From: an uncultured Eubacteriales bacterium
GTDB taxonomy: Bacteria; Bacillota; Clostridia; Christensenellales; CAG-138
Reading direction: 5' to 3'
Assembly (NCBI GenBank): GCA_902801845.1
Contig: CADCJW010000001.1
Location: 16,376-80,375 of the forward strand
Length of the DNA stretch: 64,000 nt
Shown here: in pieces, positions 1-61,810 of the stretch
Numbering within the stretch: position 1 is the first letter of the stretch
How the letters are laid out: every line of letters starts with the position of its first letter
Made by a program: the position numbers and the translations under genes
The notes under the pieces: generated by a model
What the model was told of the DNA's origin: nothing
Databases searched by the model: none
The model's input: the letters and a program-made list of their open reading frames with translations, nothing else

Positions 1-811
1 GATCATAGTTCAGCTTCCCCATCGCATAGGGCACCAGCTCGTCCGCTGTGCCGTGGATGAAGAGGAAGGGGAGATGGGTCCTGTCAAAAGCATCCTGACA
101 GTTGGTGGCGGTGATGGAGTATCCGGCCAGAAGCCTGGCCCACAGATCCATGGCGGGCAGCATGGGGAAGACCGGGACCTTGTAGGATTGGGTGAGGGCC
201 GTGGCAATCACGTCCCTGGGGGAATAGTAAGCGGAATCGGCGATGATGCCCTTTGTGTTTGCGGGCAGATCGAGGCCGGAGGCCATGATGACCGTGGCCC
301 CGCCCATGCTTTGCCCATAGAGGAAGAGGGGCAGATCGGGGTGTTTCTCCGCCAAAAGCTGGGCCCAGGCCCCGATATCGCACCGCTCCTTGACGCCAAA
401 GGTGATATACTTGCCCTCGCTCTTTCGATGGGCGCGCATGTAGGGATAGAGGACGGTGTAGCCGCTTTCATAGAGGTGCTTGGCCACCAAAGCGAACTCT
501 CGGGCGGGCCAGGACCTAAACCCATGGACAGCCACGATAAGGCCGATAGGGTTTTCCGCTTCGATCAGCTCCGCCGCCAAAGAAAGGCCGTCCTTGCTTT
601 TGATATGGAGTTCCGTCTTCGGCTTGCTCTCGAACCAGTCCACGCCCAGCTGCATCCGATCTCGAAAGCGATATCGACCGGAGGGGACCACGGTGCTGGC
701 CCGAAAGAGCTCGGTACGGTCCCGGCGGGTGCCGCCCCGCAAAAAGGCATACAAGCTGGCGGACATGACAAAAAGGAGCAGCAGTAACACTGCGATCAGA
801 GCATAAATCAT
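1..811 (-). CDS. alpha/beta-fold hydrolase (esterase/lipase-like), 3' end cut by the window edge
   Basis: Absent from the ORF track because it runs off the left edge. My translation from the ATG at 811-809 gives MIYALIAVLLLLLFVMSASLYAF (TM) ... VAVHGFRSW ... LFLYGQSMGGATVIMASG (GxSxG nucleophile elbow) ... LFIHGTADELVP. It replaces the + strand ORF 53..787. Confidence 0.75.
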   Translation of the reverse strand, partial: MIYALIAVLLLLLFVMSASLYAFLRGGTRRDRTELFRASTVVPSGRYRFRDRMQLGVDWFESKPKTELHIKSKDGLSLAAELIEAENPIGLIVAVHGFRSWPAREFALVAKHLYESGYTVLYPYMRAHRKSEGKYITFGVKERCDIGAWAQLLAEKHPDLPLFLYGQSMGGATVIMASGLDLPANTKGIIADSAYYSPRDVIATALTQSYKVPVFPMLPAMDLWARLLAGYSITATNCQDAFDRTHLPFLFIHGTADELVPYAMGKLNYD

Positions 812-937
812 AGAAACCTCAAATACACACGATGCTTTACTATACCACAGTTTTTACCATTTTCAAAGAGAAATCTTTTGATTCTTGACGATAGGTGGTT
901 TCTTGGGTACAATCAAAAGAAAAAACGGAGGCGCAGC

Positions 938-2062
938 ATGGCTTTTCTCCCTGAAAACACAAAAAAACTGGGCTTCGGCCTCATGCGGCTGCCCGTGCTG
1001 GACGGCAAGGACGATCGCATCGATCTTGACCAGGTCGCCCGGATGGCCGATCATTTCTTGGAACAGGGGTTCACCTATTTTGATACGGCCTATCCCTATC
1101 ATAACGGCTTCTCCGAACGAGCGGTCAAGAGCGTGTTGGTGGACCGCCATCCCCGGGACAGCTTCCTGCTGGCCGACAAGATGCCCATCTTCCGCATCAC
1201 GGAGGAGAAGGACGCGCCCATCCTCTTTGAGGAGCAGCTGGAGCGGACCGGCGCCGGGTACTTCGATTTTTATCTGCTCCACGCCATGGGGGCGGATCGC
1301 ATGAAGACCGTACGGGACTGCAAGGTGTGGCAATACCTGCTTCAGGAGAAGGCGCGGGGCCGTATCCGCCGATTGGGGTTTTCCTTCCATGATTCGCCTG
1401 AGGTGCTGGATAGCATGCTGACGGAGCTTCCCGAAGCCGAGTTCGTTCAGCTGCAGATCAACTATGCTGACTGGGAGGATGGGGAGGTGCAATCTCGCCG
1501 CTGCTATGAGGTCGCCCAAAAATATGGGAAACCGGTGATCGTCATGGAGCCTGTTCGCGGCGGGAGCCTGGCCTCTGAAAAAGCGGTCTGCGCGCCGCTT
1601 TTGAAGGAGGCAGATCCTGAAACATCTCTGGCTTCCTGGGCGCTTCGATTCGTAGCCAGCCTTCCGGGGGTGGCCATGATCCTTTCCGGCATGTCCAATC
1701 TGGAGCAGGTGCAGCAGAATACGGCTCTGTTTGACGATATGAAGCCGTTGTCCGAAAAGGAGGAGGCTATCCTGGTGAAAGCGGCCGAAATGCTTCGCTC
1801 GGCCGGCACCATCCCCTGCACCGGCTGCAGGTACTGCGTGGAGGGGTGCCCGGTAAAGATTGACATCCCGGATATCCTGGACCTGCTGAACGAATACGCT
1901 CGCTTTGGGTCGCTGCAGAGCGCCAAACGGAGCTATGGCTTCAGGACAAGGGGGAAGGGGGTTGCCTCCGCTTGTGTCGAATGCGGGCAATGTTTGGACG
2001 TGTGTCCACAGCATATCGAGTCGGCGGTGCATATGGCAAAAGCGGCGGAGCTGTTTGAATAA
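938..2062 (+). CDS. aldo/keto reductase with C-terminal 2x[4Fe-4S] ferredoxin-type domain
   Basis: LGFGLMRLP and FDTAYPYHNG are AKR motifs. The C-terminus carries CTGCRYCVEGCP and CVECGQCLDVCP. Start moved to the ATG at 938 (MAFLPEN), which follows AAACGGAGG. Confidence 0.85.
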   Translation: MAFLPENTKKLGFGLMRLPVLDGKDDRIDLDQVARMADHFLEQGFTYFDTAYPYHNGFSERAVKSVLVDRHPRDSFLLADKMPIFRITEEKDAPILFEEQLERTGAGYFDFYLLHAMGADRMKTVRDCKVWQYLLQEKARGRIRRLGFSFHDSPEVLDSMLTELPEAEFVQLQINYADWEDGEVQSRRCYEVAQKYGKPVIVMEPVRGGSLASEKAVCAPLLKEADPETSLASWALRFVASLPGVAMILSGMSNLEQVQQNTALFDDMKPLSEKEEAILVKAAEMLRSAGTIPCTGCRYCVEGCPVKIDIPDILDLLNEYARFGSLQSAKRSYGFRTRGKGVASACVECGQCLDVCPQHIESAVHMAKAAELFE

Positions 2063-2063
2063 T

Positions 2064-2164
2064 TGGGGATGTAGGGACTCGAATTCGCGCCTGCGGGCTT
2101 GGTCGGGATGCGGCTCTGGAGCGCTACCGGCGCTCCATTCACTACCGCATCCGTTCGAGTCCCT
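2064..2164 (-). repeat. tRNA-Val-derived palindromic module: 20-nt sense copy of the tRNA 3' segment plus inverted arm and nested hairpins
   Basis: 2064..2083 is identical to 2219..2238 (tRNA-Val T-loop to discriminator). An 11-bp stem pairs 2073-2083 with 2154-2164. Inner helices are GGATGCGG/CCGCATCC and GGAGCGC/GCGCTCC. It does not fold as a cloverleaf. Confidence 0.6.
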
Positions 2165-2180
2165 TTATTACTCTCATACC

Positions 2181-2207
2181 AAAGAAAAAGCCACCCAAAT
2201 GGGTGGC
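2181..2207 (-). terminator. intrinsic terminator of the tRNA-Val unit
   Basis: Minus-strand GCCACCC-ATTT-GGGTGGC followed by TTTTTCTTT, starting 9 nt after the tRNA 3' end. Confidence 0.8.
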
Positions 2208-2215
2208 TATTTCTT

Positions 2216-2292
2216 TGGTGGGGATGTAGGGACTCGAACCCTAGACCTCTGCGATGTGAACACAGCGCTCTAACCAGCTGAGCTACATCCCC
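2216..2292 (-). tRNA. tRNA-Val (anticodon CAC), CCA encoded
   Basis: Reverse complement GGGGATGTAGCTCAGCTGGTTAGAGCGCTGTGTTCACATCGCAGAGGTCTAGGGTTCGAGTCCCTACATCCCCACCA folds as a cloverleaf. The anticodon loop is TTCACAT. Confidence 0.93.
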
Positions 2293-2305
2293 AAGCGCAA
2301 GTAGG

Positions 2306-2334
2306 ATTATACAGCATCACTTCAAAATTTGCAA
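2306..2334 (-). promoter_or_regulatory. sigma-A-type promoter for tRNA-Val
   Basis: Minus-strand TTGCAA, 17 nt, TATAAT. The -10 ends 13 nt upstream of the tRNA 5' end. Confidence 0.7.
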
Positions 2335-2415
2335 GTCCTTTTTTTGAAATTGATTCGCTCTTGTTTCAAGCGGATACCTATGGTATGATTTTTCCACAGA
2401 AAAAGGAGGGCGTTC

Positions 2416-3654
2416 ATGATGAAAATAAAGGATATCAAACAGATTTTGAAAGACACGGCCTATCCGCATACGGCGGCGAGCCCCGAGGAAATGAAGTGCC
2501 TCACCTATCTAAAGCAAAGGTGCGAATCGATCGGCCTTTCCACCTGCGTGGAGAGCTTTTCCATCGAGCGAGCGAAGATCCATTCGGCCTCTTTGACGGT
2601 GGATGGGAAGGCGTATCCCTGCAAGGCCTATATCGGCTGCGGCAGCGGAACGGTGGAAGGACCGCTCTATTATCTCAGGAATACGGACGATCTTTCCTTT
2701 TCCCAGTGTAAGGATCATATCGTGCTCACGGACCAGCCCTTGAACATGTGGAACTATCAAGACATGCTGAAAAACGGGGCTTTGGGCTTCATCACCTTCA
2801 CCGGCCGGTACAGCTGCCCCGATCGGGATATCGACCAAAAGACGCTGCGTCCTGCCACCAGCCAGGGAAAGATCGTTCTGGGTGTCAATATCAATGTGAA
2901 GGACGCCATGCAGATCGTGGCGAAAAACGGTCAGCATGCCTGTATTGAGATCCAGCAGGAATCCTACCAGGCGGACGCCCACAACCTTATTGCGGAACTC
3001 CCCGGCGAAATCGACGAGTGGGTCGTGCTCACCGCCCATTACGATTCCACGCCCCTGTCCTGCGGCAGCTATGACAACATGACCGGCTCCATCGGTATAC
3101 TGGGCGTGGCGGAGCGGTTTGTGAAAGCTCCACACCGTCGTGGCCTGCGGTTCATCTGGTGCGGCGGGGAGGAGCTGGGCCTTTTGGGCTCCAAGGCCTA
3201 CTGTGCCGACCATGAGGGGGAATTGGAAAAAGTGGTGCTGAACATCAACCTGGACATGATCGGCAGTATCATGGGCAAGTTCATCGCCTGCTGCTCCGCA
3301 GAGGAGCGGCTTGTATCTTTCCTCGAATACACTGCGGATGAGCTTGGATTTCCCATCGCCGCTCGCAGCGGGGTCTATTCCAGCGATTCTACCCCCTTCG
3401 CGGACAAAGGGGTGCCCAGCCTCTCCTTTGCTCGGATCGCGCCGCCTACGGCCGGCTCCATCCACGAGCGGTACGATACGCCGGCCATCGTCTCTGCGGA
3501 GCAGGTCCTGATCGACACGGAGTTTATCGCCGGATTCACCGGCCGCATGGCCAACGCCGTCCGCTGCCCGGTGAAGCGGGAGATCCCCGAGAAGATCAAG
3601 GACAAGCTGGACGTCTATCTGAATCGCAAACGGGCGCCGAAACAACAGGATTGA
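2416..3654 (+). CDS. M28 family metallo-aminopeptidase
   Basis: TAHYDS, DNMTGS, GGEELGLLGSKAY and NLDMIGS zinc-ligand motifs. AAGGAGG RBS upstream. Confidence 0.85.
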   Translation: MMKIKDIKQILKDTAYPHTAASPEEMKCLTYLKQRCESIGLSTCVESFSIERAKIHSASLTVDGKAYPCKAYIGCGSGTVEGPLYYLRNTDDLSFSQCKDHIVLTDQPLNMWNYQDMLKNGALGFITFTGRYSCPDRDIDQKTLRPATSQGKIVLGVNINVKDAMQIVAKNGQHACIEIQQESYQADAHNLIAELPGEIDEWVVLTAHYDSTPLSCGSYDNMTGSIGILGVAERFVKAPHRRGLRFIWCGGEELGLLGSKAYCADHEGELEKVVLNINLDMIGSIMGKFIACCSAEERLVSFLEYTADELGFPIAARSGVYSSDSTPFADKGVPSLSFARIAPPTAGSIHERYDTPAIVSAEQVLIDTEFIAGFTGRMANAVRCPVKREIPEKIKDKLDVYLNRKRAPKQQD

Positions 3655-3675
3655 ACCCGAGCGAGAAGACACATA

Positions 3676-3703
3676 AAAACGGACGGGATCACCGTCCGTT
3701 TTA
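3676..3703. terminator. bidirectional intrinsic terminator
   Basis: AACGGACGG-GATCA-CCGTCCGTT flanked by an A-tract and a T-tract, between convergent genes. Confidence 0.7.
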
Positions 3704-3716
3704 CTATGCAAAAGCT

Positions 3717-4025
3717 TTATTCCTCCGGATAATCCTCCTCATACTGAGGACGGGCCTTGTGCTTCTTCTTTTTGCCTTTTTTGCCGTAGAACAGCTTCCA
3801 GGTGCAGATGAGGAAAAAGATTCCCAAGAGCAGCGCGAGGGCGGCGACGATCACGTCCAGATATCGGGTGACGAAGACCTGATCGCCCAAAAAGTGGAGC
3901 ATGGGATTGAATCCGTCCAAAATATAAAAGAGGATGTATACAACCGAGAGCACGATGGTCGCGTTGGCGACGATGGTGGAAATAAGTGTAAACCAACGGG
4001 GCAGAGCTTTTTTCTTTTTCTTCAT
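3717..4025 (-). CDS. small membrane protein with Lys-rich termini, function unknown
   Basis: 102-aa ORF with two clear hydrophobic spans. It starts 3 nt after the stop of the upstream gene, so it is probably co-transcribed. Confidence 0.55.
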   Translation of the reverse strand: MKKKKKALPRWFTLISTIVANATIVLSVVYILFYILDGFNPMLHFLGDQVFVTRYLDVIVAALALLLGIFFLICTWKLFYGKKGKKKKHKARPQYEEDYPEE

Positions 4026-4027
4026 GG

Positions 4028-5242
4028 TCAGTTTTCCTTTCCGCTTTCGACAATATAAACGATATCGCTTGTCTCACGTCCGTTGAGACCGTAGGAGTTT
4101 CCGTTGAAATACATGGCCGAGGAAGCGCCGCCGTCCATGTTATAAGCGGCCGCCATGCCCATATCGGCGCAGAGGATGGAAAGCTCGGACAGGGAAAGGC
4201 CCCTGTTTTTGCCGCGGCCATCCACGGTGATGAAGCAATAATGCCCGGGTTCATAGTAGCCGATCAGCGTCCGGGGGTTGGCGTCAAAGACGCTCTTGCT
4301 CATGGTGAACTTCTCCTTGGCCTCCCCGTTCGGCCCCAATAGAGCGGGCCCGAAATACCACATCTGCAGCGGCTCACGGGCGACGATGCTGTCGTGGTCC
4401 ACGGCTTGAGAGGAGATGTCCACGGTCTCCATCACACCGTCCGCATACAGGATGCACAGATCGCTGGTCAGCTTGTCATAGCGCTTGATCTCGATGCCGT
4501 TGCGATAGAACCAGCCGTGGCTGTTGGCGTAGGCGTTGAGGAAGTAGTCGGTGTTCACCCCCAGGATGCCGTTGTTGGCCAGGCACATCTCCTTGACCTT
4601 CCCGGTCTCGGAGGCCTTGGTGGCATAGGCGGTCCTCAAACTGCTGATGTCCTGGATATAGATGTCGGCCACCGTATAGGTCACCTTGTCGCGCATGCCG
4701 TCCCGAAGCTCTGCGCCGCAATTCGGGCAGGTGCCCGGCGCGTCGGAGAATTGCTTGCACTTGCTGCAGAAATACTTGGTGCAAGCGGACAACTCGATAG
4801 CCACGTCCGGGGCACGATACTCCGTGGCGGTGGAGACGAGGGTGTCGCTGAACTTCTCCGCAAACTTGCCTTTCAACAGGCCCTTAGGCTCGGGGGTCGG
4901 TTCGGGCGTAGGCTCAGGCGTGGGCTCCGGCGTTTCCGTGGGCGCAGGCGTCTCCATCGGTGCATCCGTCGCTTCTTCAGTCTCGGTAGACGCGTCGGGT
5001 TCCGTCGTGGCGGGGGCGTCTGTGGGCGCGGGCGTAGCCGTAGGCGCGTCGGTAGGCGCCGGTGTGTCCGTAGCCTTCGCTTCGATGACGGGGGCTTCGG
5101 GAAGATCCGGGAGTTCGATCTCCACCGGTTTCCAGGGGAAGAAGTGGAACACCTGGGCGCAGATCAGATAGGACAGCACACAAAAGCCCAGCAGGTCAAA
5201 GATGACCATGCGCAGGATCCTTTTTTTACCGGTCTTTTTCAT
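4028..5242 (-). CDS. phosphodiester glycosidase family protein (DUF2233/NAGPA-like), membrane-anchored
   Basis: N-terminal TM segment, a Pro/Thr/Glu-rich linker, and a CxxC...CxxC ribbon (CSKCKQF...CPNCGAEL). The C-terminal domain has NTDYF, NPRTLIGY..FITVDGR and AYNMDGGASS. Confidence 0.75.
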   Translation of the reverse strand: MKKTGKKRILRMVIFDLLGFCVLSYLICAQVFHFFPWKPVEIELPDLPEAPVIEAKATDTPAPTDAPTATPAPTDAPATTEPDASTETEEATDAPMETPAPTETPEPTPEPTPEPTPEPKGLLKGKFAEKFSDTLVSTATEYRAPDVAIELSACTKYFCSKCKQFSDAPGTCPNCGAELRDGMRDKVTYTVADIYIQDISSLRTAYATKASETGKVKEMCLANNGILGVNTDYFLNAYANSHGWFYRNGIEIKRYDKLTSDLCILYADGVMETVDISSQAVDHDSIVAREPLQMWYFGPALLGPNGEAKEKFTMSKSVFDANPRTLIGYYEPGHYCFITVDGRGKNRGLSLSELSILCADMGMAAAYNMDGGASSAMYFNGNSYGLNGRETSDIVYIVESGKEN

Positions 5243-6288
5243 TGGACAGTTTTATCCTTCACAAACACGAATTTACGCTGGAGCACGAAGCTCATGGGGT
5301 AGACGATCAGCTGCACGATGATGTAGGCCAGCCACTTGGGCACGCCGCAAAGCATCGTGAACAGGTACAACAGCCCGTAGTGGATGCCGAAGATGAACAC
5401 CGCCAGCACCACATACCGCAGGAAGCTGGTTTTGTTGTCCGTCTCGAACACCATCCGCTTGTTGAGCCAATAGTTCAAAACGGAACTGAGGATCCTGGAA
5501 ACGGCAGTGGAGAATATGAGCGACACGGCCCAGCTTTTGGTGAGCCAGGAGAGGAACAGGAAGAGGACGTATTCGAACAGGAAGCTAAGCAGGGAGGAGC
5601 TGACGAACATCAGGATCATCTTATAGATGCGCCAGCCGTCCCTAAGGGCCCGAAAATGGGAGGAAGCATTGTCCTCGATGTACACGGTCTCGATGGGTAC
5701 CTCAACGATGGGGATCATCTCCCGGCAGCAGTAGAGGAGCTGACTGATCTCATATTCGTATCGATCTCCTTTCAGGGAAAGCATCCGGGGGATGTTGTCC
5801 CGGGAGAAGGCCCGAAGGCCCGTCTGGGTATCGTAGACCTTTACGCCGGTGGAGATAGCGAACACGAACCGGGTGATGGCGTTGCCGGCCCGGCTCTTGA
5901 AGGGCACGTTGCCCGTGAACCGGCGGGAGCCGGTGACCAGGGCGTCCCGATGGGAGCGGAAGGCTTCCGCCACCCGGAGCACGTCGTCCGGCAGATGCTG
6001 GCCGTCCGCGTCTACGGTGATCACACCCTCGGCGTCGGGGCAGTGGTCATAGATGTATTGAAAGGCTGTCTTCATGGCAGCGCCCTTGCCCCGATTCACC
6101 TCGTGGTGCAGCACGGTGACAAGGGGAAGGTCGCTCAGAGCAGCAAAAATAGGCTGACAGTCCGCACGGCTGCCGTCGTCCACGATCACAATGGGAAAGT
6201 TCGTTTTGGAAATCAGCGTATTTACGACACCAGTCAGCTTCTCATCCGGCTGGTATGCGGGTATCACGATCATCATAATTTTGGTCAT
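5239..6288 (-). CDS. family 2 glycosyltransferase fused to a GtrA-like membrane domain
   Basis: VIPAYQPDEKL, VDDGS and VDADGQH (DxD) motifs, with a C-terminal 4-TM GtrA-like region. Start placed at MTKIMMIV because the upstream in-frame Met lies inside the promoter -10. A start at 6276 is also possible. Confidence 0.8.
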   Translation of the reverse strand: MTKIMMIVIPAYQPDEKLTGVVNTLISKTNFPIVIVDDGSRADCQPIFAALSDLPLVTVLHHEVNRGKGAAMKTAFQYIYDHCPDAEGVITVDADGQHLPDDVLRVAEAFRSHRDALVTGSRRFTGNVPFKSRAGNAITRFVFAISTGVKVYDTQTGLRAFSRDNIPRMLSLKGDRYEYEISQLLYCCREMIPIVEVPIETVYIEDNASSHFRALRDGWRIYKMILMFVSSSLLSFLFEYVLFLFLSWLTKSWAVSLIFSTAVSRILSSVLNYWLNKRMVFETDNKTSFLRYVVLAVFIFGIHYGLLYLFTMLCGVPKWLAYIIVQLIVYPMSFVLQRKFVFVKDKTVQ

Positions 6289-6307
6289 TCTCCTAAAAAC
6301 TTGTCCC

Positions 6308-6316
6308 ATTATACCA
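6308..6316 (-). promoter_or_regulatory. extended -10 promoter element (TGGTATAAT) for the GT2 gene
   Basis: Minus-strand TGGTATAAT lies about 20 nt upstream of the AGGAG RBS. Confidence 0.55.
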
Positions 6317-6452
6317 CAGCGAGCGAAAAAAGGAAGAGCAAAAAGCCTGAACTTGTCACGGATTTGTAAACTGTTTGTAATATCGAGGGGATTCGTCTGG
6401 AAAGTGGGGAAGGTAGAGTATATGATGAATGCAACACTAGAGGAGTATATAC

Positions 6453-8114
6453 ATGGCCAGAAACAGAAAAAAATCAAAAAGGATTCAGCTTTATGCCTCC
6501 TTGGCAGCGGTGGCCGTTTTGGCCATCGCTCTCGGCGTTCTGCTGGGAGGGAAGATATCCGGCATCCTGTTTTCAGGGCAGGATCTGTTCGTGGACCAAA
6601 ACCGGCTGCCAGAGGCGACTCCCACCCAGATCCCGGTGACTTTGCCCCCGGTTGAGCAGCAGCTCACCATAGCGCCCCAGCCGGAGACCGCCGTCCCCAG
6701 CACCCCGGCGCCAACGGCGACGCCGGGGCCAACGCCCACATTGGACCCCTATTCCGAATTGGAGCAGGTGGCCGACACTGGCATGATGAACGGCATCGTC
6801 AACATCATGTTTATCGGCGTGGATTATGAGGCGGCGCGGATCGATAAAAACTGGGCAGGGAAGGACGGGAACTCCTTCCATTCCGATGTGATGATCGTCT
6901 GCGCGGTCAACTTCAACGAAAACCGGGTGGATCTTATCTCCCTGCCCCGGGACACCTATGCCGCCATCCCCGGTGTAGACGGGGTATATAAGCTGAACGC
7001 CGCCTTGAACTGCGGGACGGACGGCACGAACTACGGGCTGTTCTGTGAGAACGGGGAGGGATTCGAAAAGGTGTGCGAGGCTGCCGAATGGATGCTGGGC
7101 GGCATCGACGTGGATTACTATTACGCCGTGACCATGGAATCGGTCAAGCAGATCGTGGACATCGTGGGGGGCGTCTGGTATAACCTGGAGGGCAACTTCG
7201 ATAACGGCGGCCGGTATTATAAGGCCGGTTTCCAGTACATGGACGGGCAGGCCTGCCTCGACTATATGCGGGTCCGCAAGGGCGGCCATGGACAGCTGCC
7301 CACGGGCGATAGCAACCGGGTGAATCGTCAAAAGAACATGATGGTCACCATCTTCCGCAAGATGAAGGAGGAGAACATGGTCCTAAAGGTGCCTGAGATC
7401 CTGGCCGCCTTCGATGGGGCCCTGTTCACCAACTGCACGCCGGCGCAGACGGCGGCTTTGGCGCTCTTTGGGTATAAGCTGGACCCAGACAATATCGGCG
7501 CCCACTCCATGGCTGCGGACTCGGCCACGCTGTTCCACTGGAACTTCGTGTTCACCCGCCAGTCCGATCGGGTCAAGCTCATTAAAGAAATTTACGGCGT
7601 GGATGTAAAGACCCATCCCAAGTACTCCCTGGCATACGGGCGGTATACCTGGTGCAAGATGCTCGAAAAACAGTATATGAACATCTGCGACCCGCTCAAA
7701 TCCTATGTGCAAAAGAAGCTGGACGAGGACGAGCAGCTGTCCTCGTCGTCCGAGGGGGAGGGCGATGAATCATCCGAAAGCTATTCAAGGTATTCCTCCT
7801 CAGATCGGGAGCTGTTCTCGGAATACAAGTCAGCTCTGAGGGAGCTGAAGGATCTGTACAGCTCCGCGGACAAGGAGGCGAAGAAGGCGGCCAATCGTAA
7901 GAGCAATTCCTTGAACAGCGTCTCCAATTCCCTGCTGGATCAGATGATCCAGGTGCAGGATCTGGCTATCTCGGTGGCGCAGACCTTCGACTACACCAAG
8001 GTCAAGAACATCAGCAAAACCTGCTACCCCAACCAGACCCATACCAACTCGCCCTGGGCACTGGATTACTGGAACAAAAAGAAGTATAACGCTGTGAAAG
8101 TGAACTTCAACTAA
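6453..8114 (+). CDS. LytR-CpsA-Psr (LCP) family cell-wall glycopolymer transferase with long C-terminal extension
   Basis: N-terminal TM segment, then NIMFIGVD, SDVMIVCAVN and ISLPRDTY. GAGGAG RBS upstream. Confidence 0.85.
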   Translation: MARNRKKSKRIQLYASLAAVAVLAIALGVLLGGKISGILFSGQDLFVDQNRLPEATPTQIPVTLPPVEQQLTIAPQPETAVPSTPAPTATPGPTPTLDPYSELEQVADTGMMNGIVNIMFIGVDYEAARIDKNWAGKDGNSFHSDVMIVCAVNFNENRVDLISLPRDTYAAIPGVDGVYKLNAALNCGTDGTNYGLFCENGEGFEKVCEAAEWMLGGIDVDYYYAVTMESVKQIVDIVGGVWYNLEGNFDNGGRYYKAGFQYMDGQACLDYMRVRKGGHGQLPTGDSNRVNRQKNMMVTIFRKMKEENMVLKVPEILAAFDGALFTNCTPAQTAALALFGYKLDPDNIGAHSMAADSATLFHWNFVFTRQSDRVKLIKEIYGVDVKTHPKYSLAYGRYTWCKMLEKQYMNICDPLKSYVQKKLDEDEQLSSSSEGEGDESSESYSRYSSSDRELFSEYKSALRELKDLYSSADKEAKKAANRKSNSLNSVSNSLLDQMIQVQDLAISVAQTFDYTKVKNISKTCYPNQTHTNSPWALDYWNKKKYNAVKVNFN

Positions 8115-8130
8115 AACTCGATCCAACTGA

Positions 8131-8160
8131 AAAAGCCATCCCTTCTCGGATGGCTTTTTT
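8131..8160. terminator. bidirectional intrinsic terminator
   Basis: AAAA-GCCATCC-CTTCTC-GGATGGC-TTTTTT between the convergent LCP gene and murF. Confidence 0.85.
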
Positions 8161-8178
8161 CATAACCATATGTTCATT

Positions 8179-9504
8179 TCACAGAGCGCGGATGCAGGCG
8201 ACGGCGTTTTCCAGGTGCATGCCCCTGGACCCCTTGACCAAAATGGTGTCGCCGTCCCGCAGCAGGCGGGGGAGCGCTTCCAAAAGGGCGTCCTGGGTGA
8301 GAAACCCCTGGCCGCTCGCTTTTTGCACGGCCTGCTCGAAGAGTGGGCCCACGCCCAGGATGAGATCGATCCCCAGCCTGGACGCTTCCTTGGCGATGCG
8401 CTCGTGGAAGACGATCCCCTGATCGCCCAGTTCCAGCATATCTCCCAGGATGCAGACCTTGCGTCCCTGTGCCCTGGATAAAACCTGGAGCGAAGCCTCC
8501 ATGGAGGTGGGATTGGCGTTGTATACGTCGTTGAGCAGGGTGAATCGAGGTAACTTTTCCACGGCCATGCGGCCGGAAATAGGGGTAAATGAAGAGAGCC
8601 CCGCCTGGATCTTTTCCGGCGGTACCTTCATTGCCAGGCCCACGGCTATGGCGGAGAGAGCGTTCAGAATCATGTGATGGCCCGGGACCTGGAGTTGGAC
8701 GGGAAGCCGACCGCCATCCCAGCAGGCCGTGAAACTGGCTCCGAAGAGGTCATCCTCCCGGGCGTCCTCCGCACGAAGGTCACAGTCCTTGCTAAACCCA
8801 TAGGTGAAAGCGCCGGGGATAGTCCGCAGATATTCGTCGTCCCCGTTAGCGATGATCCTTCCGCCGGGACGCATATGGGCGAGCATCTCCGTTTTGCCCC
8901 GGAAGATGCCCTCCCGGGAGCCGAAAAATTCTATATGGGCTTCACCAATGTTGGTGAACAGGCAGATGGTGGGCTCGCTCATGGCGGACAAGGCGTCGAT
9001 CTCGCCGAAATGGTTGGTGCCCATCTCCACCACAGCGCACTCGTGCTCTGGCATAAGCCCAAAGAGGACCTGGGGCACACCGGTTTGATTGTTGAGGTTC
9101 CCGGTGGTGCTGTGGGTATTGTACGCGGTGGAGAGCACCGCGCTCACCATGCCGCGGGTGGTGGTCTTCCCGGCGCTGCCCGTGATGCCCACCAGGGGGA
9201 TTTGGAATTGGCAGCGATAGGCATGGGCCAAGGTCTGGAACGCCCGGACGCAATCCTTCACACGAATGTGGGGATAGGGGACGTCCACCTCAGAAAGGGT
9301 CAGCTTCGCGCCCTTTTCAAAGGCCTGGGGGATGAAACGGTGCCCGTCGAACACGTCGCCCCGCACCGGCACGTACAGGGCGCCGGTCGCCATGGTGCGG
9401 GTGTCGATGGACACACTTTCAAAACTTTCGCGAAGGAGAGTTTCCGGTCCAACGTATCGGCCGCCGCTAAGCTCGACAGCCCTTTGGATGGGGAAAGGGA
9501 TCAT
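8179..9504 (-). CDS. murF: UDP-N-acetylmuramoyl-tripeptide--D-alanyl-D-alanine ligase
   Basis: GITGSAGKTTT P-loop and Mur ligase domain order. It overlaps ddl by 4 nt. Confidence 0.9.
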   Translation of the reverse strand: MIPFPIQRAVELSGGRYVGPETLLRESFESVSIDTRTMATGALYVPVRGDVFDGHRFIPQAFEKGAKLTLSEVDVPYPHIRVKDCVRAFQTLAHAYRCQFQIPLVGITGSAGKTTTRGMVSAVLSTAYNTHSTTGNLNNQTGVPQVLFGLMPEHECAVVEMGTNHFGEIDALSAMSEPTICLFTNIGEAHIEFFGSREGIFRGKTEMLAHMRPGGRIIANGDDEYLRTIPGAFTYGFSKDCDLRAEDAREDDLFGASFTACWDGGRLPVQLQVPGHHMILNALSAIAVGLAMKVPPEKIQAGLSSFTPISGRMAVEKLPRFTLLNDVYNANPTSMEASLQVLSRAQGRKVCILGDMLELGDQGIVFHERIAKEASRLGIDLILGVGPLFEQAVQKASGQGFLTQDALLEALPRLLRDGDTILVKGSRGMHLENAVACIRAL

Positions 9505-10538
9505 CTGTATTTCTCCAGGGAGAGGGAGACGATCTTCTCACAAAGGGTGATATAGTCGAGTCCGATCACCGCCGCTTCCTGAGGGAGCAGGGAAGTGGGC
9601 GTCATGCCGGGAAGGGTGTTGGCTTCCAGGCAGTAAGCCTTTTCATCCTCAGTCAACAAGAAGTCCATCCGGGCGTAAACAGAAAGCTTCAGCGCACGGA
9701 AGACCCGCTCCGCCAGTCGTTGCACCTTTTCTGTGGCGCTGGGGCTGATGGGCGCGGGGGTAACCTCCAAAGCGGCGCCGGCCTGATATTTGTTTTTATA
9801 GTCGTAGAAGCCTTCCTTGGGGATGATCTCGATGACGGGGAGGGCTTTGCCGTCCACCACGCCGCAGGAGAGCTCCCTTCCTTGGATGAACTCCTCCACC
9901 AGGATGGTGTCCTCCTGCTCAAAGGCGATCTCAATAGCCCGTTTCAGTTCTTCCATTGTCCGGGCGATGGAGATGCCGATGGAAGAGCCGCCGCTGTTGG
10001 GCTTTGCCACGGCGGGCAGGGGCAGATCGTCCAAGGAGAATATCTCGCCCCGCTTCAACAGCCGGAACCTGGGGGTCAAAATGCCCTCCTGCACGAAGAT
10101 TTCCTTGGCAGAATGCTTATCCATGCTGAGACGGCAGCCCTCAGGGCCGCTACCGGTGTAGCGGATGTTGTGCTCATCGAAGACCTTTTGGACCGAACCG
10201 TTTTCTCCGTCTGCGCCGTGGAGAGCCATGTAGACGATGTCCGCTGCCTGGCAGATCTCGATGACGTTGAGGCCGATGCGATCGGACCAGCCCATGGGCC
10301 GGGAGGCGGCGATGGCAGCGAGATCCGGCTCCGTCTCCGAGATGGGAGCAGGGGGGAGAGGCTTTGCGTTTTCGAACAGCTCATCGATGCTTCCCTTGAG
10401 CCCCGGCATACCGAAGAACAGGTCCAGCAAAATGGCCTGGTGGCCGGCCTTCAAAAAGGCGTTGGTGGCCATGGTCCCGCTGGACAAAGACACGGTCCGC
10501 TCCGGAGACAGACCTCCGGCCAAAACGACGATTTTCAT
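9501..10538 (-). CDS. ddl: D-alanine--D-alanine ligase
   Basis: MKIVVLAGGLSPERTVSLSSG, ATP-grasp core, EANTLPGMTPTSLLP. Confidence 0.9.
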   Translation of the reverse strand: MKIVVLAGGLSPERTVSLSSGTMATNAFLKAGHQAILLDLFFGMPGLKGSIDELFENAKPLPPAPISETEPDLAAIAASRPMGWSDRIGLNVIEICQAADIVYMALHGADGENGSVQKVFDEHNIRYTGSGPEGCRLSMDKHSAKEIFVQEGILTPRFRLLKRGEIFSLDDLPLPAVAKPNSGGSSIGISIARTMEELKRAIEIAFEQEDTILVEEFIQGRELSCGVVDGKALPVIEIIPKEGFYDYKNKYQAGAALEVTPAPISPSATEKVQRLAERVFRALKLSVYARMDFLLTEDEKAYCLEANTLPGMTPTSLLPQEAAVIGLDYITLCEKIVSLSLEKYR

Positions 10539-10648
10539 ATGGTTGCTCCCTGAAATTTTTTCTTTGGTATATCATATTTCCGATAAAAAGACAAATGAAC
10601 TTTTTTTATCCAAACAGAAACGGCTGTCCAAACGCATATACATGCCGT

Positions 10649-12334
10649 ATGAAGCGTTGTATCTGCCTGGTCCTATCCCTTTTGCTGCTTTTTTCCGGCT
10701 GCCTCCCTGGGCGGGAGGTGGCCCACGTGTATCTGCGGGATCGCGGGAGCACCGTTTACCACGGACATACGCCATTTTCCAGCATGGTCCTTGTTTATCC
10801 CGATCCCCAGGATCTTCTTGACCGTTCCCAAAAGCTCCTGGAAAAGGCGGCTTCCTCCGAGGACCCCCCTGAGTTGGAAAAAGAGTTTGCTGATTTGGCA
10901 CGAAAGTATGGAGAGTTGGTCAGCGCTGCGTCATTGGCCTATGTGCGTCACTGTCAGGACGTGACGGACCGGGACCGGGCCATGGAATATGGGACGTTGA
11001 ACGGTTCGCTGTATCCCATTCAAACGGCGTTGCTGAAGACGGAGAAGCTTTTGATGGACCGATTCGGCTTTCACCGGGATCGAGGGGCGGCCTACGCCGA
11101 GATGCTGGACAGAGTCGCCGGGCAGGATGCGCCTCTCCTTCAGTCGTTACGCCGGCAGGAGGATGATTTGTGTCGCCAATACGAGCAGCTGGATGCCACC
11201 TATCGACTGGACTTTCAGGGCCGGACCTGGTCCATGGAGGAGCTGATGGCGGATGAGACCCTCTCCATGTCTTCTTTTCTCGAGGCTCTGGAAGCCTTCG
11301 CCCGGGGCCGCAATCAGGCGGCGGGGAGCCTGTTCCTTCAGCTCATGGCCATACGCAACCAGATGGCGAAGGCCATGGGCTATGCCTCCTATGCCGACAG
11401 CCAGTATGCTTCCTACGGGCGGGACCGTGCGCCGGCCGATTCTTTGGCAGCCGCCCAAATCATAAAACAGGTCTTCGTGCCCCTGTATGCCCGATTGCGA
11501 GAACGGTGCGAGAACGAAATGAAATATCTCGGCGGAGCCAGCTTCTCTGAGGACAGCTTTCTCGCCGCCATGGAAGCGGCGGCGGAGAAGGTCGTCCATG
11601 GCGGCAAAGAAACGTGGCGGTATATGCTTGCCTATGGCCTATACGACAGCGCCCCCTCGAAAAAGAAGCTGCGCGGCAGCTTCACCACCTACTTTTCCGC
11701 CTATGGATGTCCCTTCATCCTGACCCAATGGCAGGGGGATGCTTCCTCCGTTTTCACCGTGATCCATGAGTTCGGCCATTTTCTCAGCTATTATCTCAAT
11801 CCTGAGGGCACCTATTATGGGGTTACGGATTTGGACCTTGCTGAGCTGGACGCCCAGGGATTCGAGCTCTTTATGACGGAGGAATATGACGCCATCTTCG
11901 GCCGATATGCTACCGCCGCCCGCCTTTGTTTTTTCATGAACGCCCTGTACGCCATCCTCTCCGGGTTCATGGAGGACGAGTTTCAGCAGAGCGCGTACGC
12001 CATGGAAACGCCTACGGTGGAAAAACTGAATCAACTGTACGGCAGATTATCCAAGGAATATGGATTCGACAAGCTGTTTGGGTACGAGGGCATGGAATGG
12101 ACCGACATCTCGCACACCTTCCGGTTTCCATTTTATTACGTGAGCTACGGGATCAGCATGTTGGGGGCCATGTCCATGGCGCGGCAGGGGAGGCGGATCT
12201 ATCGACGACTGCTGCGCCGATCGGGAACGGAACCCTTTGCTAAGATCATAGGGGTGGATGTGCTGTCGGAGGAGTCCATCCGAAACTTGGCCATCTGGGT
12301 GGAGAACAAGGTCGATACATGGCTGCAGGCGTGA
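10649..12334 (+). CDS. M3-like oligoendopeptidase, predicted lipoprotein
   Basis: HEFGH zinc motif. Start moved to MKRCICLVLSLLLLFSGC (lipobox LFSGC). No clear RBS, so the start is uncertain; the alternative is 10595. Confidence 0.7.
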   Translation: MKRCICLVLSLLLLFSGCLPGREVAHVYLRDRGSTVYHGHTPFSSMVLVYPDPQDLLDRSQKLLEKAASSEDPPELEKEFADLARKYGELVSAASLAYVRHCQDVTDRDRAMEYGTLNGSLYPIQTALLKTEKLLMDRFGFHRDRGAAYAEMLDRVAGQDAPLLQSLRRQEDDLCRQYEQLDATYRLDFQGRTWSMEELMADETLSMSSFLEALEAFARGRNQAAGSLFLQLMAIRNQMAKAMGYASYADSQYASYGRDRAPADSLAAAQIIKQVFVPLYARLRERCENEMKYLGGASFSEDSFLAAMEAAAEKVVHGGKETWRYMLAYGLYDSAPSKKKLRGSFTTYFSAYGCPFILTQWQGDASSVFTVIHEFGHFLSYYLNPEGTYYGVTDLDLAELDAQGFELFMTEEYDAIFGRYATAARLCFFMNALYAILSGFMEDEFQQSAYAMETPTVEKLNQLYGRLSKEYGFDKLFGYEGMEWTDISHTFRFPFYYVSYGISMLGAMSMARQGRRIYRRLLRRSGTEPFAKIIGVDVLSEESIRNLAIWVENKVDTWLQA

Positions 12335-38794: not shown

Positions 38795-39043
38795 AAATAT
38801 GGGCTGTGAGAAAGAGGAGTACACTGGATTTCCTCTCAGAGAGGCGCTCGACGTGCTGCAAGGGCGCTGTGGAAGATCGGGTGGAAGGTCGCTTTTTAGC
38901 CCTGCGACGCGAGAGCCGGAAGGCGCGTAGTGTTGCACGCAGACGCTGCGTTATGGCTATGAGGGAAACGGGGGAGACCCTGTTTAACAAAGGTGGTACC
39001 GCGAGCGCCCGCTTCGTCCTTTGACGAAGGCGGGCGATTTGTT
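38795..39043 (+). promoter_or_regulatory. T-box riboswitch leader (tRNA-Val-sensing expected) with terminator/antiterminator
   Basis: Stem I elements GAGAAAGAGGAGTA and CAGAGAG. T-box sequence AACAAAGGTGGTACCGCG at 38986..39003. Terminator CGCCCGCTTCGTC-CTTTG-ACGAAGGCGGGCG plus ATTTGTT at 39006..39043. valS lies directly downstream. Confidence 0.88.
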
Positions 39044-41834: not shown

Positions 41835-41911
41835 CGGGGTGTGGCGCAGTCCGGTAGCGCACGTGCTTTGGGAGCATGGGGCCGGAGGTTCAAATCCTCT
41901 CACCCCGACCA
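41835..41911 (+). tRNA. tRNA-Pro (TGG), CCA encoded
   Basis: CGGGGTG...CACCCCGACCA. Anticodon loop TTTGGGA. Confidence 0.9.
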
Positions 41912-41916
41912 GGTGT

Positions 41917-41991
41917 GGCCCCGTGGTCAAGCGGTTAAGACATCGCCCTTTCACGGCGGTAACAGGAGTTCGATTCTCCTCGGGGTCACCA
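41917..41991 (+). tRNA. tRNA-Glu (TTC), CCA encoded
   Basis: GGCCCCGTGGTCAAGCGGTTAAGACA... Anticodon loop CTTTCAC. Confidence 0.9.
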
Positions 41992-42013
41992 TTTCCTTCC
42001 GGGAATTGATTGA

Positions 42014-42090
42014 GGGCCTTTAGCTCAGTTGGTCAGAGCAGTCGGCTCATAACCGATCGGTCCGGGGTTCAAGTCCCTGAAGGCCCACCA
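42014..42090 (+). tRNA. tRNA with CAT anticodon, probably tRNA-Ile2 (lysidine type) rather than elongator Met
   Basis: GGGCCTTTAGCTCAGTTGGTCAGAGCAGTCGGCTCATAACCGATCGGTC... resembles ileX-type sequences as I remember them. The Met versus Ile2 call is not certain. Confidence 0.85.
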
Positions 42091-42093
42091 CGC

Positions 42094-42170
42094 GGCCCGG
42101 TAGTACAGTTGGTTAGTACGCCAGCCTGTCACGCTGGAGGTCAGGGGTTCGAGCCCCCTCCGGGTCGCCA
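42094..42170 (+). tRNA. tRNA-Asp (GTC), CCA encoded
   Basis: GGCCCGGTAGTACAGTTGGTTAGTAC... Anticodon loop CTGTCAC. Confidence 0.9.
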
Positions 42171-42199
42171 CTTTCTCCGAGAGAACGGCTCACCAGCTC

Positions 42200-42274
42200 G
42201 CTGGTGTAGCTCAATGGCAGAGCAACTGATTTGTAATCAGTAGGTTGAAGGTTCGACTCCTTTCACCAGCTCCA
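42200..42274 (+). tRNA. tRNA-Thr (TGT), CCA encoded
   Basis: GCTGGTGTAGCTCAATGGCAGAGCA... Anticodon loop TTTGTAA. Confidence 0.9.
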
Positions 42275-42295
42275 AACCTTGACAGCTTGATACAT

Positions 42296-42380
<85 letters not shown>

Positions 42381-42384
42381 ATAT

Positions 42385-42471
42385 GCGGGAATGGCGGAAT
42401 TGGCAGACGCGCACGGTTCAGGTCCGTGTGAAAGCGATTTCATGCAGGTTCAAGTCCTGTTTCCCGCACCA
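42385..42471 (+). tRNA. tRNA-Leu (CAG), long variable arm, CCA encoded
   Basis: GCGGGAATGGCGGAATTGGCAGACGC... Anticodon loop TTCAGGT. Confidence 0.9.
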
Positions 42472-42473
42472 AC

Positions 42474-42507
42474 AAAAAACAGAGTCCATCCGGACTCTGT
42501 TTTTTGT
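42474..42507 (+). terminator. intrinsic terminator of the tRNA operon
   Basis: ACAGAGTCC-ATCC-GGACTCTGT followed by TTTTTGTT. Confidence 0.85.
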
Positions 42508-42517
42508 TGCATGGAAT

Positions 42518-42567
42518 GGAACAGGACTTGAAGGGCGCAGGCGCGAATCAAGTCCTGTTTCCCGCAC
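42518..42567 (+). repeat. tRNA-Leu-derived palindromic module (minimal form): inverted arm, 16-nt loop, 20-nt sense copy of the tRNA 3' segment
   Basis: 42548..42567 is identical to 42450..42469 (T-loop to discriminator plus 1). A 12-bp stem pairs 42520-42531 with 42548-42559. The loop AGGGCGCAGGCGCGAA contains the motif shared with the Val module. Confidence 0.6.
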
Positions 42568-54483: not shown

Positions 54484-54496
54484 AGCCTGAATTTTA

Positions 54497-54538
54497 AAAC
54501 AACTATTCGTTAAAGACAAGTTTAACGAATAGTTGTTT
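54497..54538. repeat. perfect 18-6-18 bp palindrome (AAACAACTATTCGTTAAA-GACAAG-TTTAACGAATAGTTGTTT)
   Basis: Read directly from the sequence. It lies between the rnhA stop (54566) and the recombinase start (54483). Confidence 0.9.
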
Positions 54539-61606: not shown

Positions 61607-61682
61607 GGGGCATTAGCGCAGTTGGTAGCGCGCCACAATGGCATTGTGGAGGCCAGGAGTTCGACTCTCCTATGCTCCACCA
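61607..61682 (+). tRNA. tRNA-Ala (GGC), CCA encoded
   Basis: GGGGCATTAGCGCAGTTGGTAGCGCGCCACAATGGCATTGTGG... with the G3:U70 pair. Anticodon loop ATGGCAT. Confidence 0.9.
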
Positions 61683-61683
61683 C

Positions 61684-61717
61684 AAACAAAACACCACCAT
61701 TCGGTGGTGTTTTGTTT
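61684..61717 (+). terminator. intrinsic terminator of tRNA-Ala
   Basis: AAACAAAACACCACC-ATTC-GGTGGTGTTTTGTTT. Confidence 0.85.
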
Positions 61718-61729
61718 ATATAAAAAGAT

Positions 61730-61810
61730 GGAGAGTCGAAGTGGATATGGTAGTAAATTGGTCTCATTTCGCGAGCCCGCGGGCGAGTGTTCGACTCTCC
61801 TATGCTTCCA
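61730..61810 (+). repeat. tRNA-Ala-derived palindromic module: inverted arm, 49-nt loop, sense copy of the tRNA 3' segment
   Basis: 61789..61806 is identical to 61659..61676 (T-loop into the acceptor 3' strand), followed by T+CCA. An 11-bp stem pairs 61730-61740 with 61790-61800. The loop carries GGATATGGTAGTAAATTGG and GCCCGCGGGCGAGTG, similar to the Val module. Confidence 0.6.

Follow-up and report, generated by a model that had tools for sequence, protein, structure and literature searches.

The closest described counterpart of the elements reported here is found in Escherichia coli K-12, where the tyrT/tyrV tRNA operon carries 178-bp repeats in its trailer (RttR, RF00391). At that locus (L093 among our comparison loci, 1286000-1288200) the unit consists of an inverted arm GGGGAAGGAT, about 90 nt of GC hairpins, and then ATCCTTCCCCCACCACCA, the last 19 nt of tRNA-Tyr; the annotated RttR small RNA (sRNA) ends at the CCA of the tRNA-Tyr copy. 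RttR is still said to have no known role (10.1101/2024.07.17.603846). A comparable arrangement occurs in the stretch of DNA analysed here, a 64-kb window of contig CADCJW010000001.1 from an uncultured Eubacteriales bacterium, in which all three tRNA transcription units end in a module made up of a terminator, an inverted arm, GC-rich nested hairpins and a copy, exact over 17-20 nt, of the T-loop-to-discriminator segment of the last tRNA in the unit. The two systems have in common their position in the trailer of a tRNA operon, a unit that closes with about 19 nt of tRNA 3' end, tandem repetition, and an inverted arm that forms an outer stem around GC hairpins (10 bp in E. coli, 8-16 bp in the clostridial modules). 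The E. coli repeats also have a GC hairpin and GAGTA directly 5' of the copy, like the GAGWR of one of the scaffold subfamilies described below (subfamily B). They differ in lacking an intrinsic terminator after the CCA, in that their copy begins later in the T-loop, and in being confined to a single locus, whereas the modules are found at many tRNA loci per genome and also as dispersed copies. The first-pass annotation of the window had been unable to match the modules to any described family: this stands as far as Rfam is concerned, from which they are absent, but the layout is one that the E. coli tyrT/rtT repeats share. We know of no description of rtT that emphasises the pairing of its outer stem with the tRNA-Tyr copy.

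The features of the window are listed in Table 1, in which coordinates are positions of the window. The module that follows tRNA-Val, read on the minus strand, is the sole intact one of the three. Its copy derives from tRNA positions 2238-2219, immediately before the encoded CCA (2218-2216), and the only two occurrences of this 20-mer in the window are those at 2219 and 2064, against about 1e-7 expected by chance; the original observation is confirmed. The terminator palindrome extends into the CCA (CCAAAGAAA...TTTCTTTGG), and a terminator scan scored its stem (2189-2208) on both strands; in the phasing that we favour, the terminator is the left part of the repeat unit. The arm is the exact reverse complement of the T-loop and the 3' strand of the T-stem of tRNA-Val. 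A single C separates it from the 5' strand of helix P2, GGATGCGG (2152-2145), which is paired with CCGCATCC (2113-2106); P2 in turn encloses a conserved asymmetric internal loop, TAGTGAAT/AGAG, and helix P3, GGAGCGC-CGGTA-GCGCTCC (2136-2118). Positions 2083-2073 of the copy provide the 3' strand of P1 and positions 2072-2064 an unpaired tail, which is followed by ATT and, 1 nt further on, by the stop codon of the convergent aldo/keto reductase gene. The predicted fold (-51.6 kcal/mol, z = -6.2) has the 11-bp outer stem and the nested helices that the first-pass annotation had drawn, although these helices are predicted to be of 9 and 8 bp and not of 8 and 7.

The same order of parts was found after tRNA-Leu and tRNA-Ala, and here too the arm and the copy match the local tRNA; the earlier view of the three modules as equivalent is correct as to layout only. 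A covariance model (CM), R1, detects just these three modules in the window, and scores them at 103.9 bits (Val), 27 bits (Ala) and 12.8 bits (Leu). The Leu module is reduced to an arm AACAGGACTTGAA (42520-42532), a residual scaffold GGGCGCAGGCGCGAA and a 19-nt copy (42548-42566). Metagenome contigs with the same flanking protein carry a longer Leu module with a scaffold as in Val, so the Leu module of the window is a deletion form; it looks like an internal-deletion derivative in which the segment between two CGCAG repeats has been lost from a module of the type seen at the orthologous Leu locus of another rumen metagenome-assembled genome (MAG; L038). The Ala module has, in order, an arm GGAGAGTCGAA (61730-61740), the 5' strand of P2 with TAGTAAAT, then GCCCGCGGGC, GAGTG and a copy (61790-61810) that carries a one-base insertion; the 3' strand of P2 is missing, and relatives (L238, L242) have intact two-unit versions at the same tRNA-Ala locus. 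The non-tRNA motifs said to be shared between modules were recovered: CGCAGGCGCGAAT is identical between Val and Leu, and GGATRYGGTAGTRAAT is confined in the window to the Val and Ala modules, against 0.08 occurrences expected. A copy is present only after the last tRNA of each unit, and after none of the six internal tRNAs of the Pro-to-Leu cluster. Promoter prediction gave nothing between terminator and module at the Val, Leu or Ala units. ARAGORN and Rfam found nine true tRNAs in the window and nothing at 2064-2164, 42520-42566 or 61730-61810, and Rfam scans of the window, the strain loci and the viral loci, at gathering thresholds and at permissive ones, returned only tRNAs and one T-box. 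The latter is a leader at 38797-39024 on the plus strand (95 bits, just over gathering), 5' of valS (39064-41691), which precedes the seven-tRNA cluster. The terminator of tRNA-Leu (CAGAGTCC-ATCC-GGACTCTG followed by TTTTTTG) was left unflagged by the simple terminator scan, though it falls within the stated rule of that scan.

Table 1. Features of the three tRNA units of the 64-kb window and of their terminal modules
Feature	Position	Strand	Evidence or remark
tRNA-Val(cac)	2216..2292	-	ARAGORN; Rfam tRNA 68.6 bits
Bidirectional intrinsic terminator after tRNA-Val	2179..2215	.	Perfect palindrome; read from sequence
14-nt non-palindromic spacer TATGAGAGTAATAA	2165..2178	-	Sequence
Inverted arm AGGGACTCGAA, 5' strand of outer stem P1	2154..2164	-	Sequence, fold
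Nested hairpin core (P2, internal loop, P3)	2106..2152	-	Fold, covariation, CM R1 103.9 bits
Conserved 22-nt stretch CGACCAAGCCCGCAGGCGCGAA	2084..2105	-	Contains small hairpin GCC-CGCA-GGC
Sense copy TTCGAGTCCCTACATCCCCA of tRNA-Val T-loop-to-discriminator	2064..2083	-	20/20 identical
Aldo/keto reductase open reading frame (ORF), convergent to Val module	878-2062 (annotated start 938)		
tRNA-Leu(cag), last of seven-tRNA cluster 41835-42471	42385..42471	+	ARAGORN, Rfam
tRNA-Leu terminator palindrome ACAAAAAACAGAGTCC-ATCC-GGACTCTGTTTTTTGTTG	42472..42509	.	Read from sequence
Leu module, short form	42520..42566	+	R1 12.8 bits
tRNA-Ala(ggc)	61607..61682	+	ARAGORN, Rfam
Bidirectional terminator after tRNA-Ala	61683..61719	.	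Sequence, terminator scan
Ala module, degenerate	61730..61810	+	R1 27 bits

A 20-mer from the scaffold matched 60 genome loci, of which 31 are in MAGs of rumen and gut Clostridia, labelled Ruminococcaceae, Oscillospiraceae or Christensenellales in the MAG records; the remaining half or so fall in the coding DNA of GC-rich genomes and were set aside as chance matches. At every 20-mer locus that has a tRNA, this tRNA is followed by terminator, arm, scaffold and sense copy, and the arm and copy are those of the local tRNA, as had been claimed for the window. The arm complements the T-loop and T-stem 3' strand of its own tRNA perfectly over 8-16 nt, and its length spans 8 to 23 nt among tRNA-linked modules. 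The idea of a conserved scaffold abutting a locus-specific tRNA segment was thus confirmed across these loci and by R1, which recognises 44 copies in the window and the 20-mer loci together. The tRNAs concerned are those for Ala, Arg, Leu(cag, taa), Val, Glu, His, Trp, Ser(gga, tga), Pro and Lys, and at least 18 tRNA species are involved once the metagenome set described below is added; position and orientation relative to the tRNA are constant in all of the approximately 60 tRNA-linked cases. That the modules are decayed tandem copies of tRNA genes is barely credible. Their 3' 20 nt are indeed tRNA sequence, and GGTAGTGAATGG faintly recalls a D-arm, as an impression only, but ARAGORN and the Rfam tRNA model find nothing at the modules, the arm is antisense to the tRNA, one and the same scaffold stands behind unrelated tRNAs, P2 does not follow the acceptor stem, and orthologous loci align over the scaffold and not over a tRNA. 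The first-pass annotation had likewise held that they were neither tRNAs nor pseudo-tRNAs, and the criterion that it set for decayed tandem tRNA genes, alignment of orthologous loci over a full tRNA length, already speaks against that reading.

At least three scaffold subfamilies can be distinguished: A, characterised by CGACCAAGCCCGCAGGCGCGAA; B, by TGACCGAG with a GC hairpin and GAGWG; and a third with TATTGAAY/RGAC loops. The phasing that fits every locus is tRNA(...discriminator), then n units of the form CCA-terminator-spacer-arm-scaffold-copy, then the flank. The tRNA-linked unit is accordingly gene-less and about 130-190 bp in length, with a spacer of 10-15 nt, and is bracketed by T-loop-to-discriminator direct repeats of 18-23 bp. 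Many loci contain tandem units, in which each internal copy leads into CCA and another terminator; a final copy mostly ends at the discriminator and abuts unrelated flank. The junction between scaffold and copy shifts by 0-3 nt (GAA/TTCGA, GAA/TCGA, GAC/CGAA), and the unpaired tail of the copy has diverged in L091, L060, L048, L055 and L045. The tRNA-proximal unit is usually the best preserved (from proximal to distal, 92, 78 and 53 bits with R1 at L222, and 98 and 54 bits at L083), and at L238 and L064 the distal unit is disrupted.

The composition of these arrays bears on whether the modules might be passive palindromic repeats, akin to repetitive extragenic palindromic (REP) sequences or bacterial interspersed mosaic elements (BIMEs), with no dedicated machinery. 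The tRNA arm and copy would then be kept matched by local duplication, gene conversion and quasi-palindrome correction, and arrays would change by slippage or by unequal crossing-over between the 18-23 bp repeats. We consider this rather unlikely. It would fit the near-identical tandem duplicates seen in L091 and in the L054 terminators, the variable length of the arm, the mosaic units of L079, where the same terminator is found with different scaffolds, and L060, where the terminator palindrome runs on without a break into a complete antisense copy of the tRNA 3' end. Arrays in which subfamilies A and B are mixed and accompanied by different terminators (L074, L079) are, however, hard to derive locally, and cannot be simple local duplications; moreover the arm is mostly separated from the terminator palindrome by an unrelated spacer of 10-14 nt. 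A derivation of the arm as an outward extension of the terminator palindrome was rejected since it fits L060 only, with an unrelated spacer intervening elsewhere. A separate peculiarity was seen in metagenome contig L005 (about 100-190), where the tRNA-Leu ahead of a long Leu module starts GCAGGTA.. and not GCGGGAA.. but keeps the 3' end ..TTTCCCGCA, in a different upstream context. Its acceptor strands would therefore not pair, and it is either a recombinant tRNA or an assembly chimera.

Covariation was examined in sets of 24, 39 and 110 sequences. In the 24-module alignment, P2 and P3 are 97% paired, with 13 of the 16 pairs changed on both sides and one pair changed on one side only. Among 72 distinct cores, 1051 of 1113 stem pairs are Watson-Crick, and the exceptions include 7 G-T, 11 A-C and 29 G-A pairs; the set of 39 sequences gives a similar result. 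The frequencies of G-T (0.6%) and A-C (1.0%) may be compared with 7.4% and 1.2%, respectively, in the acceptor and T stems of 62 distinct tRNAs at the same loci, which served as a control. When a structure is under selection in a single RNA strand, G-U pairs are tolerated and A-C pairs are not. The equal rarity of G-T and A-C, together with indifference to orientation, the strong terminator lying ahead and frequent decay, points to helices preserved at the DNA level, in a folded single strand or in both strands; in this respect the modules would be unlike RttR, which is a stable processed RNA. Pairing that is Watson-Crick only would also be expected of the passive repeats considered above.

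These data weigh most directly on the proposal that the modules encode an rtT-like structured RNA, which we regard as a serious if improbable alternative. Such an RNA would be a read-through 3' trailer folded as a three-way junction (outer stem, kink-turn (K-turn)-like hairpin and small GC hairpin), which the tRNA 3'-end machinery would trim to a stable sRNA like RttR with a regulatory or decoy function toward tRNA-binding factors. The fixed position and orientation relative to the tRNA in about 60 cases, the strong covariation of the helices with their conserved loops, and the internal units that finish in CCA and a terminator as tRNA genes do, all agree with it, as does the layout shared with the E. 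coli tyrT/tyrV repeats, where RttR ends at the CCA of the copy; the internal loop, by our own reading, suits a K-turn-like consensus. Conversely, G-U pairs are as scarce as A-C pairs, unlike in the tRNAs of the same loci; the modules are preceded by strong intrinsic terminators, and no promoter is predicted; units that stand alone or come last in an array lack a CCA and terminator; of the modules in the window two out of three are broken, and close relatives have lost units by deletion or erasure; and the scaffold is found in either orientation to genes, including antisense inside a phage late operon. Homology to the E. coli system is not detectable either: RF00391 had no match in the module scans even at E <= 10, and R1 gave at most 3.6 bits on the E. 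coli repeat units, its best matches in L093 (7.4 bits) falling in the tyrT and tyrV genes themselves.

The scaffold is not restricted to tRNA loci. A wider scan, with a pattern that joined the inner hairpin to the first part of the 3' stretch, yielded 8 viral loci and at least 120 metagenome loci. Among the metagenome matches listed, 109 of 125 are not near a tRNA and 16 have a tRNA within 200 nt upstream; in most of these 16 the arm and copy fit that tRNA (Ala, Ser, Glu, Val(tac), Leu, Met or Thr). The other 109 have the form GGTAGCGAAGCGG-P2-TAGTGAAT-P3-AGAG-P2'-TGACCGAGCCGCAGCGAGA, which is the same core with other outer stems. A phage contig with genes for terminase, P22-like portal and capsid (L111) contains three intergenic copies, of which two are antisense and one is sense to the genes. 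Among the matches listed, the genes flanking non-tRNA copies show no bias in arrangement (13 ++, 11 --, 11 divergent and 7 convergent, counts that rest on rough gene calls), and a test of these copies for an RNA-gene orientation, by way of an orientation-specific terminator, was negative. This spread of the scaffold to at least 18 tRNA loci, to non-tRNA sites and to phages is left without explanation if the repeats are passive. Cultured phages (INPHARED) gave no match to the phage-type element, and a viral scan with an A-type 17-mer produced only chance matches in coding DNA, which were rejected. The family is a large repeat group of gut and rumen Clostridia and their phages, undescribed according to Rfam 15 and the searchable literature; literature searches on the sequences themselves, on tRNA-plus-hairpin attachment (att) sites and on Faecalibacterium repeats found nothing that describes it.

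Several further features accompany the non-tRNA copies. In L112, L114, L115, L141, L219 and others, a small hairpin on the 3' side is followed by motifs like CUGAUGAGG or CUGAGGGG, and the 5' side has CCCC-loop-GGGG hairpins and GGTAGCGAAG; further short hairpins, CCTTCCCCTTGAGGGGAAGG among them, are repeated in the vicinity, and the whole has a mosaic, BIME-like appearance. Motifs like CUGAUGAG, together with CGAAG, flank many of these copies and suggested a hammerhead ribozyme, but this was rejected because the register misfits when examined by hand and Rfam reports none. Tandem arrays of scaffold plus terminator without tRNA-derived arms are present at L159 (5841-6102), where the nearer copy ends 257 nt downstream of tRNA-Cys, and at L195 and L161, so that members outside the tRNA-tailored subfamily stack in tandem too.

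Clustering of the neighbours of about 30 tRNA-linked and 109 other loci, among the matches listed, disclosed no recurrent protein family, and no nuclease, transposase or integrase gene is adjacent to the modules, as the first-pass annotation had observed for the three in the window. The same annotation had entertained a 3'-guide RNA, on the strength of a conserved scaffold followed by a locus-specific segment of about 20 nt; such a stand-alone RNA would direct a TnpB, IscB, Cas12k or IS110-type enzyme to tRNA genes. This reading was not borne out and we judge it highly improbable. An effector gene is absent from all of those loci among the matches listed, the Rfam families gave no match, and no promoter is predicted; more than half of the supposed guide (11-13 nt) is paired with the arm, its tail decays instead of being conserved, most of the scaffolds listed have no tRNA-derived segment at all, and the covariation is of the DNA type.

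Orthologous loci of related genomes differ by the gain or replacement of tRNA-linked units, and by units that have lost internal segments or have eroded. The Val locus, whose gene context is reductase, tRNA-Val and M28 peptidase, holds a single A unit in the window and in L085, a pair of B units with the last copy decayed in L091/L092, and other combinations in L056, L060 and L040. The Ala(ggc) locus holds two units in L238 and L242, one degenerate unit in the window and a near-erased trace in L240. L243 encodes a flavodoxin identical to that of L242 and shares its distal unit; its proximal unit is another one, internally deleted, and its terminator also differs. The modules thus behave as units that are dispensable and recombinationally active, and not as strictly conserved genes. 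The deletions in L243 and in the window Leu module took place at microhomologies, as would be expected if the repeats were passive.

Two loci show how genuine mobile elements relate to the modules. L063 contains, at 611-6650, a 6-kb element integrated in tRNA-Ser(cga), with genes for a tyrosine integrase (797-1987), an XRE repressor and a DnaC-like ATPase; its att repeats of 23 bp run from the T-loop to the CCA, and it supplies its own bidirectional terminator. The element lies between tRNA-Ser and the displaced 3' end, beyond which are found the original terminator and two modules. The T-loop-to-CCA block is hence a real recombination target in these bacteria. In L110 (7800-12160) a prophage right end, with a tail-fibre-like ORF and, by reading alone, lysin-like and holin-like ORFs, is followed by a partial copy of a tRNA end, a terminator and two tandem modules, an arrangement like that of L063, though no tRNA is present in the 7800-12160 stretch. 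It might be supposed that the modules are ordinary att scars, the copy being the attR of a classical tRNA-targeting element and the rest its decayed ends; the use of this very block by the L063 integrase, which also brings a terminator, and the position of the L110 prophage end just upstream of a module array would be in keeping with this. The supposition is largely refuted by the conserved scaffold, however, and we think it very unlikely. What lies between the repeats is a conserved and covarying scaffold and not random decay; the real L063 element has direct arm-type repeats and no scaffold; none of the 13 loci fetched with the L063 integrase as query (L094-L106) gives an R1 match; and in both L063 and L110 the mobile element sits between the tRNA and older modules. 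The earlier suggestion of miniature att-like elements comes nearer than the guide RNA to the model that we favour. A link of the modules to the L063 integrase was also considered, since the L063 attR flank (CGACC..CGCGAA) resembled a scaffold end, and was rejected because the loci fetched with this integrase have no scaffold and the element has ordinary arm-type repeats; the resemblance of its right end, ..CGACCCGCGAA/TTCGAATCC, to a deleted scaffold end may be a coincidence.

Our tentative preference, held with some doubt, is that the tRNA-linked module is a non-autonomous, cassette-like DNA repeat anchored on tRNA 3' ends and dependent on an enzyme encoded elsewhere. The element would act as a folded single DNA strand, in which the outer stem formed by arm and copy rebuilds a duplex image of the T-loop and T-stem of the tRNA gene. 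A recombinase encoded elsewhere might then join the folded strand to the tRNA 3' end: the hairpin site would be opened in its 3' arm and joined to the target, to give target copy, CCA-terminator body, inverted arm, loop/scaffold and target copy. Integration by way of such a hairpin site predicts the order seen in the modules, and would keep the tRNA intact and properly terminated, while unequal recombination between the 18-23 bp repeats could expand and contract the arrays. A more specific version, in which the units are programmable gene-less hairpin cassettes whose outer stem replicates the target tRNA, an outside recombinase (possibly of the Xer type) inserts them and new units stack on the tRNA-proximal side, is in our view doubtful. 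The window does contain an Xer-family tyrosine recombinase gene at 53380-54519 on the minus strand, with Pfam Phage_integrase and a SAM-like N-terminal domain, flanked by a methionine gamma-lyase-family gene on one side and RNase H on the other. Among NCBIfam models XerS fits it best (185 bits, under the cut-off), and it is probably a housekeeping gene and only a speculative candidate for acting on the hairpin elements.

Several observations weigh against the cassette interpretation. No recombinase or transposase is linked to the elements, and nothing ties the Xer-family gene, merely a candidate, to them. The orthologous loci reached through the flanking aldo/keto reductase and flavodoxin are occupied, rearranged or broken in synteny, with no clean empty site at Val or Ala. 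No consistent flanking direct repeat or target-site duplication was found at the non-tRNA copies, so that a common insertion mechanism for these and the tRNA-linked modules is an assumption. The variation of 0-3 nt at the junction is loose for a site-specific crossover, and selection that is stronger close to the tRNA could also account for the better state of proximal units. The closest described layout, that of E. coli tyrT/RttR, belongs to a stable processed RNA, an analogy that may tell in favour of RNA here. The main point favouring RNA is the conserved internal loop, which with ..GA.. on its 5' strand and ..GA.. on its 3' strand (tandem G-A) resembles, by reading alone, a K-turn; conservation of the loop in the metagenome and viral sets is partly imposed by the search pattern.

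Even on a conservative view, the family is an abundant, uncatalogued group of repeats in major gut and rumen Clostridia and their phages, which shapes the ends of tRNA operons, places recombination-prone repeats of 18-23 bp beside prophage integration sites, and will confuse the annotation of tRNAs, att sites and non-coding RNAs. It also gives a large comparative context to the E. coli tyrT/rtT repeats, which after 45 years are still unexplained. If the modules are mobile hairpin cassettes, recombination of folded single-stranded DNA would extend beyond integrons and Xer-exploiting phages, and the choice of target would be written in a stem, which would be of mechanistic and possibly of engineering interest. 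If they are programmable as well, Firmicutes would possess a folded-DNA integration system like those of attC and CTX, in which a change of stem would suffice to redirect units to at least 18 tRNA species and also elsewhere in chromosomes and phages.

Gene-less palindromic repeats are well known, and some are common to phages and their hosts, but those described in the literature covered are not tailored to tRNAs (PMC3733652, PMC11602168). REP sequences, BIMEs, REP doublets (REPINs) and MITEs (miniature transposable elements with inverted repeats) are, like the present family, short, GC-rich, palindromic, gene-less, extragenic and of high copy number, occur in both orientations and form mosaics. 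REP and REPIN sequences carry a GTAG or CGTC tag at the palindrome's foot; here a GTAG is found within the invariant GGTAGTGAAT, 4 nt 5' of the inner hairpin, but it lies inside an internal loop, and its conservation in the large sets is imposed by the search pattern. The copies differ from those of REP sequences and MITEs in not being near-identical, their stems varying with compensatory changes. There is no RAYT or IS200-like gene beside any copy in the neighbour clustering, among the matches listed, and tblastn with an approximate IS200 TnpA query, a weak test, found nothing in the window or the fetched loci. Outer inverted repeats are present as in MITEs, without a consistent target-site duplication or a related insertion sequence or transposase in the flanks. 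For an outer stem tailored to a tRNA, combined with direct repeats of 18-23 bp, we know of no REP or MITE precedent. Integrative elements that target tRNA genes (T-loop sublocation class), and the gene-less derivatives of the cis-mobilizable element (CIME) type, share the T-loop-to-3'-end direct repeat, the restored tRNA end and the supplied terminator, as L063 illustrates, but the modules have a hairpin scaffold and inverted arm inside, and no integrase or arm-type repeats. With the TnpB omega-RNA and the homing CRISPR RNAs of CRISPR-associated transposons (CAST) they share a constant scaffold and a 3' segment of about 20 nt that matches a tRNA; unlike those RNAs, they have no effector nearby, a self-paired segment with a diverged tail, a majority of members without the segment, and covariation of the DNA type.

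Integron cassettes and the CTX prophage are built by the joining of a folded-hairpin site to a target, as is proposed here for the modules. Integron attC sites and the attP(+) site of CTX, acted on by XerCD, give a product in the same order: target copy, body, inverted arm, structured loop and target copy. The modules resemble attC in being imperfect palindromes of about 60-140 nt in which certain unpaired bases are conserved and the stems vary while staying complementary. Further points of likeness are that tandem arrays form, in the modules with what would be the newest unit by the primary site, and that the units lack a recombinase of their own. In contrast to integrons, there is no integrase beside any array, no linked intI/attI platform and no ORF in the units. 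The attC core RYYYAAC/GTTRRRY is only loosely echoed, in arms that often end ..TCGAAC and in the target G/TTCGA, a partial match to the consensus; the direct repeats are much longer than in attC and CTX sites, and the mechanism proposed here is inferred. Gene-less palindromic repeats and repeats of tRNA trailers are of a known kind, of which the tRNA-tailored hairpin cassette is a new form.

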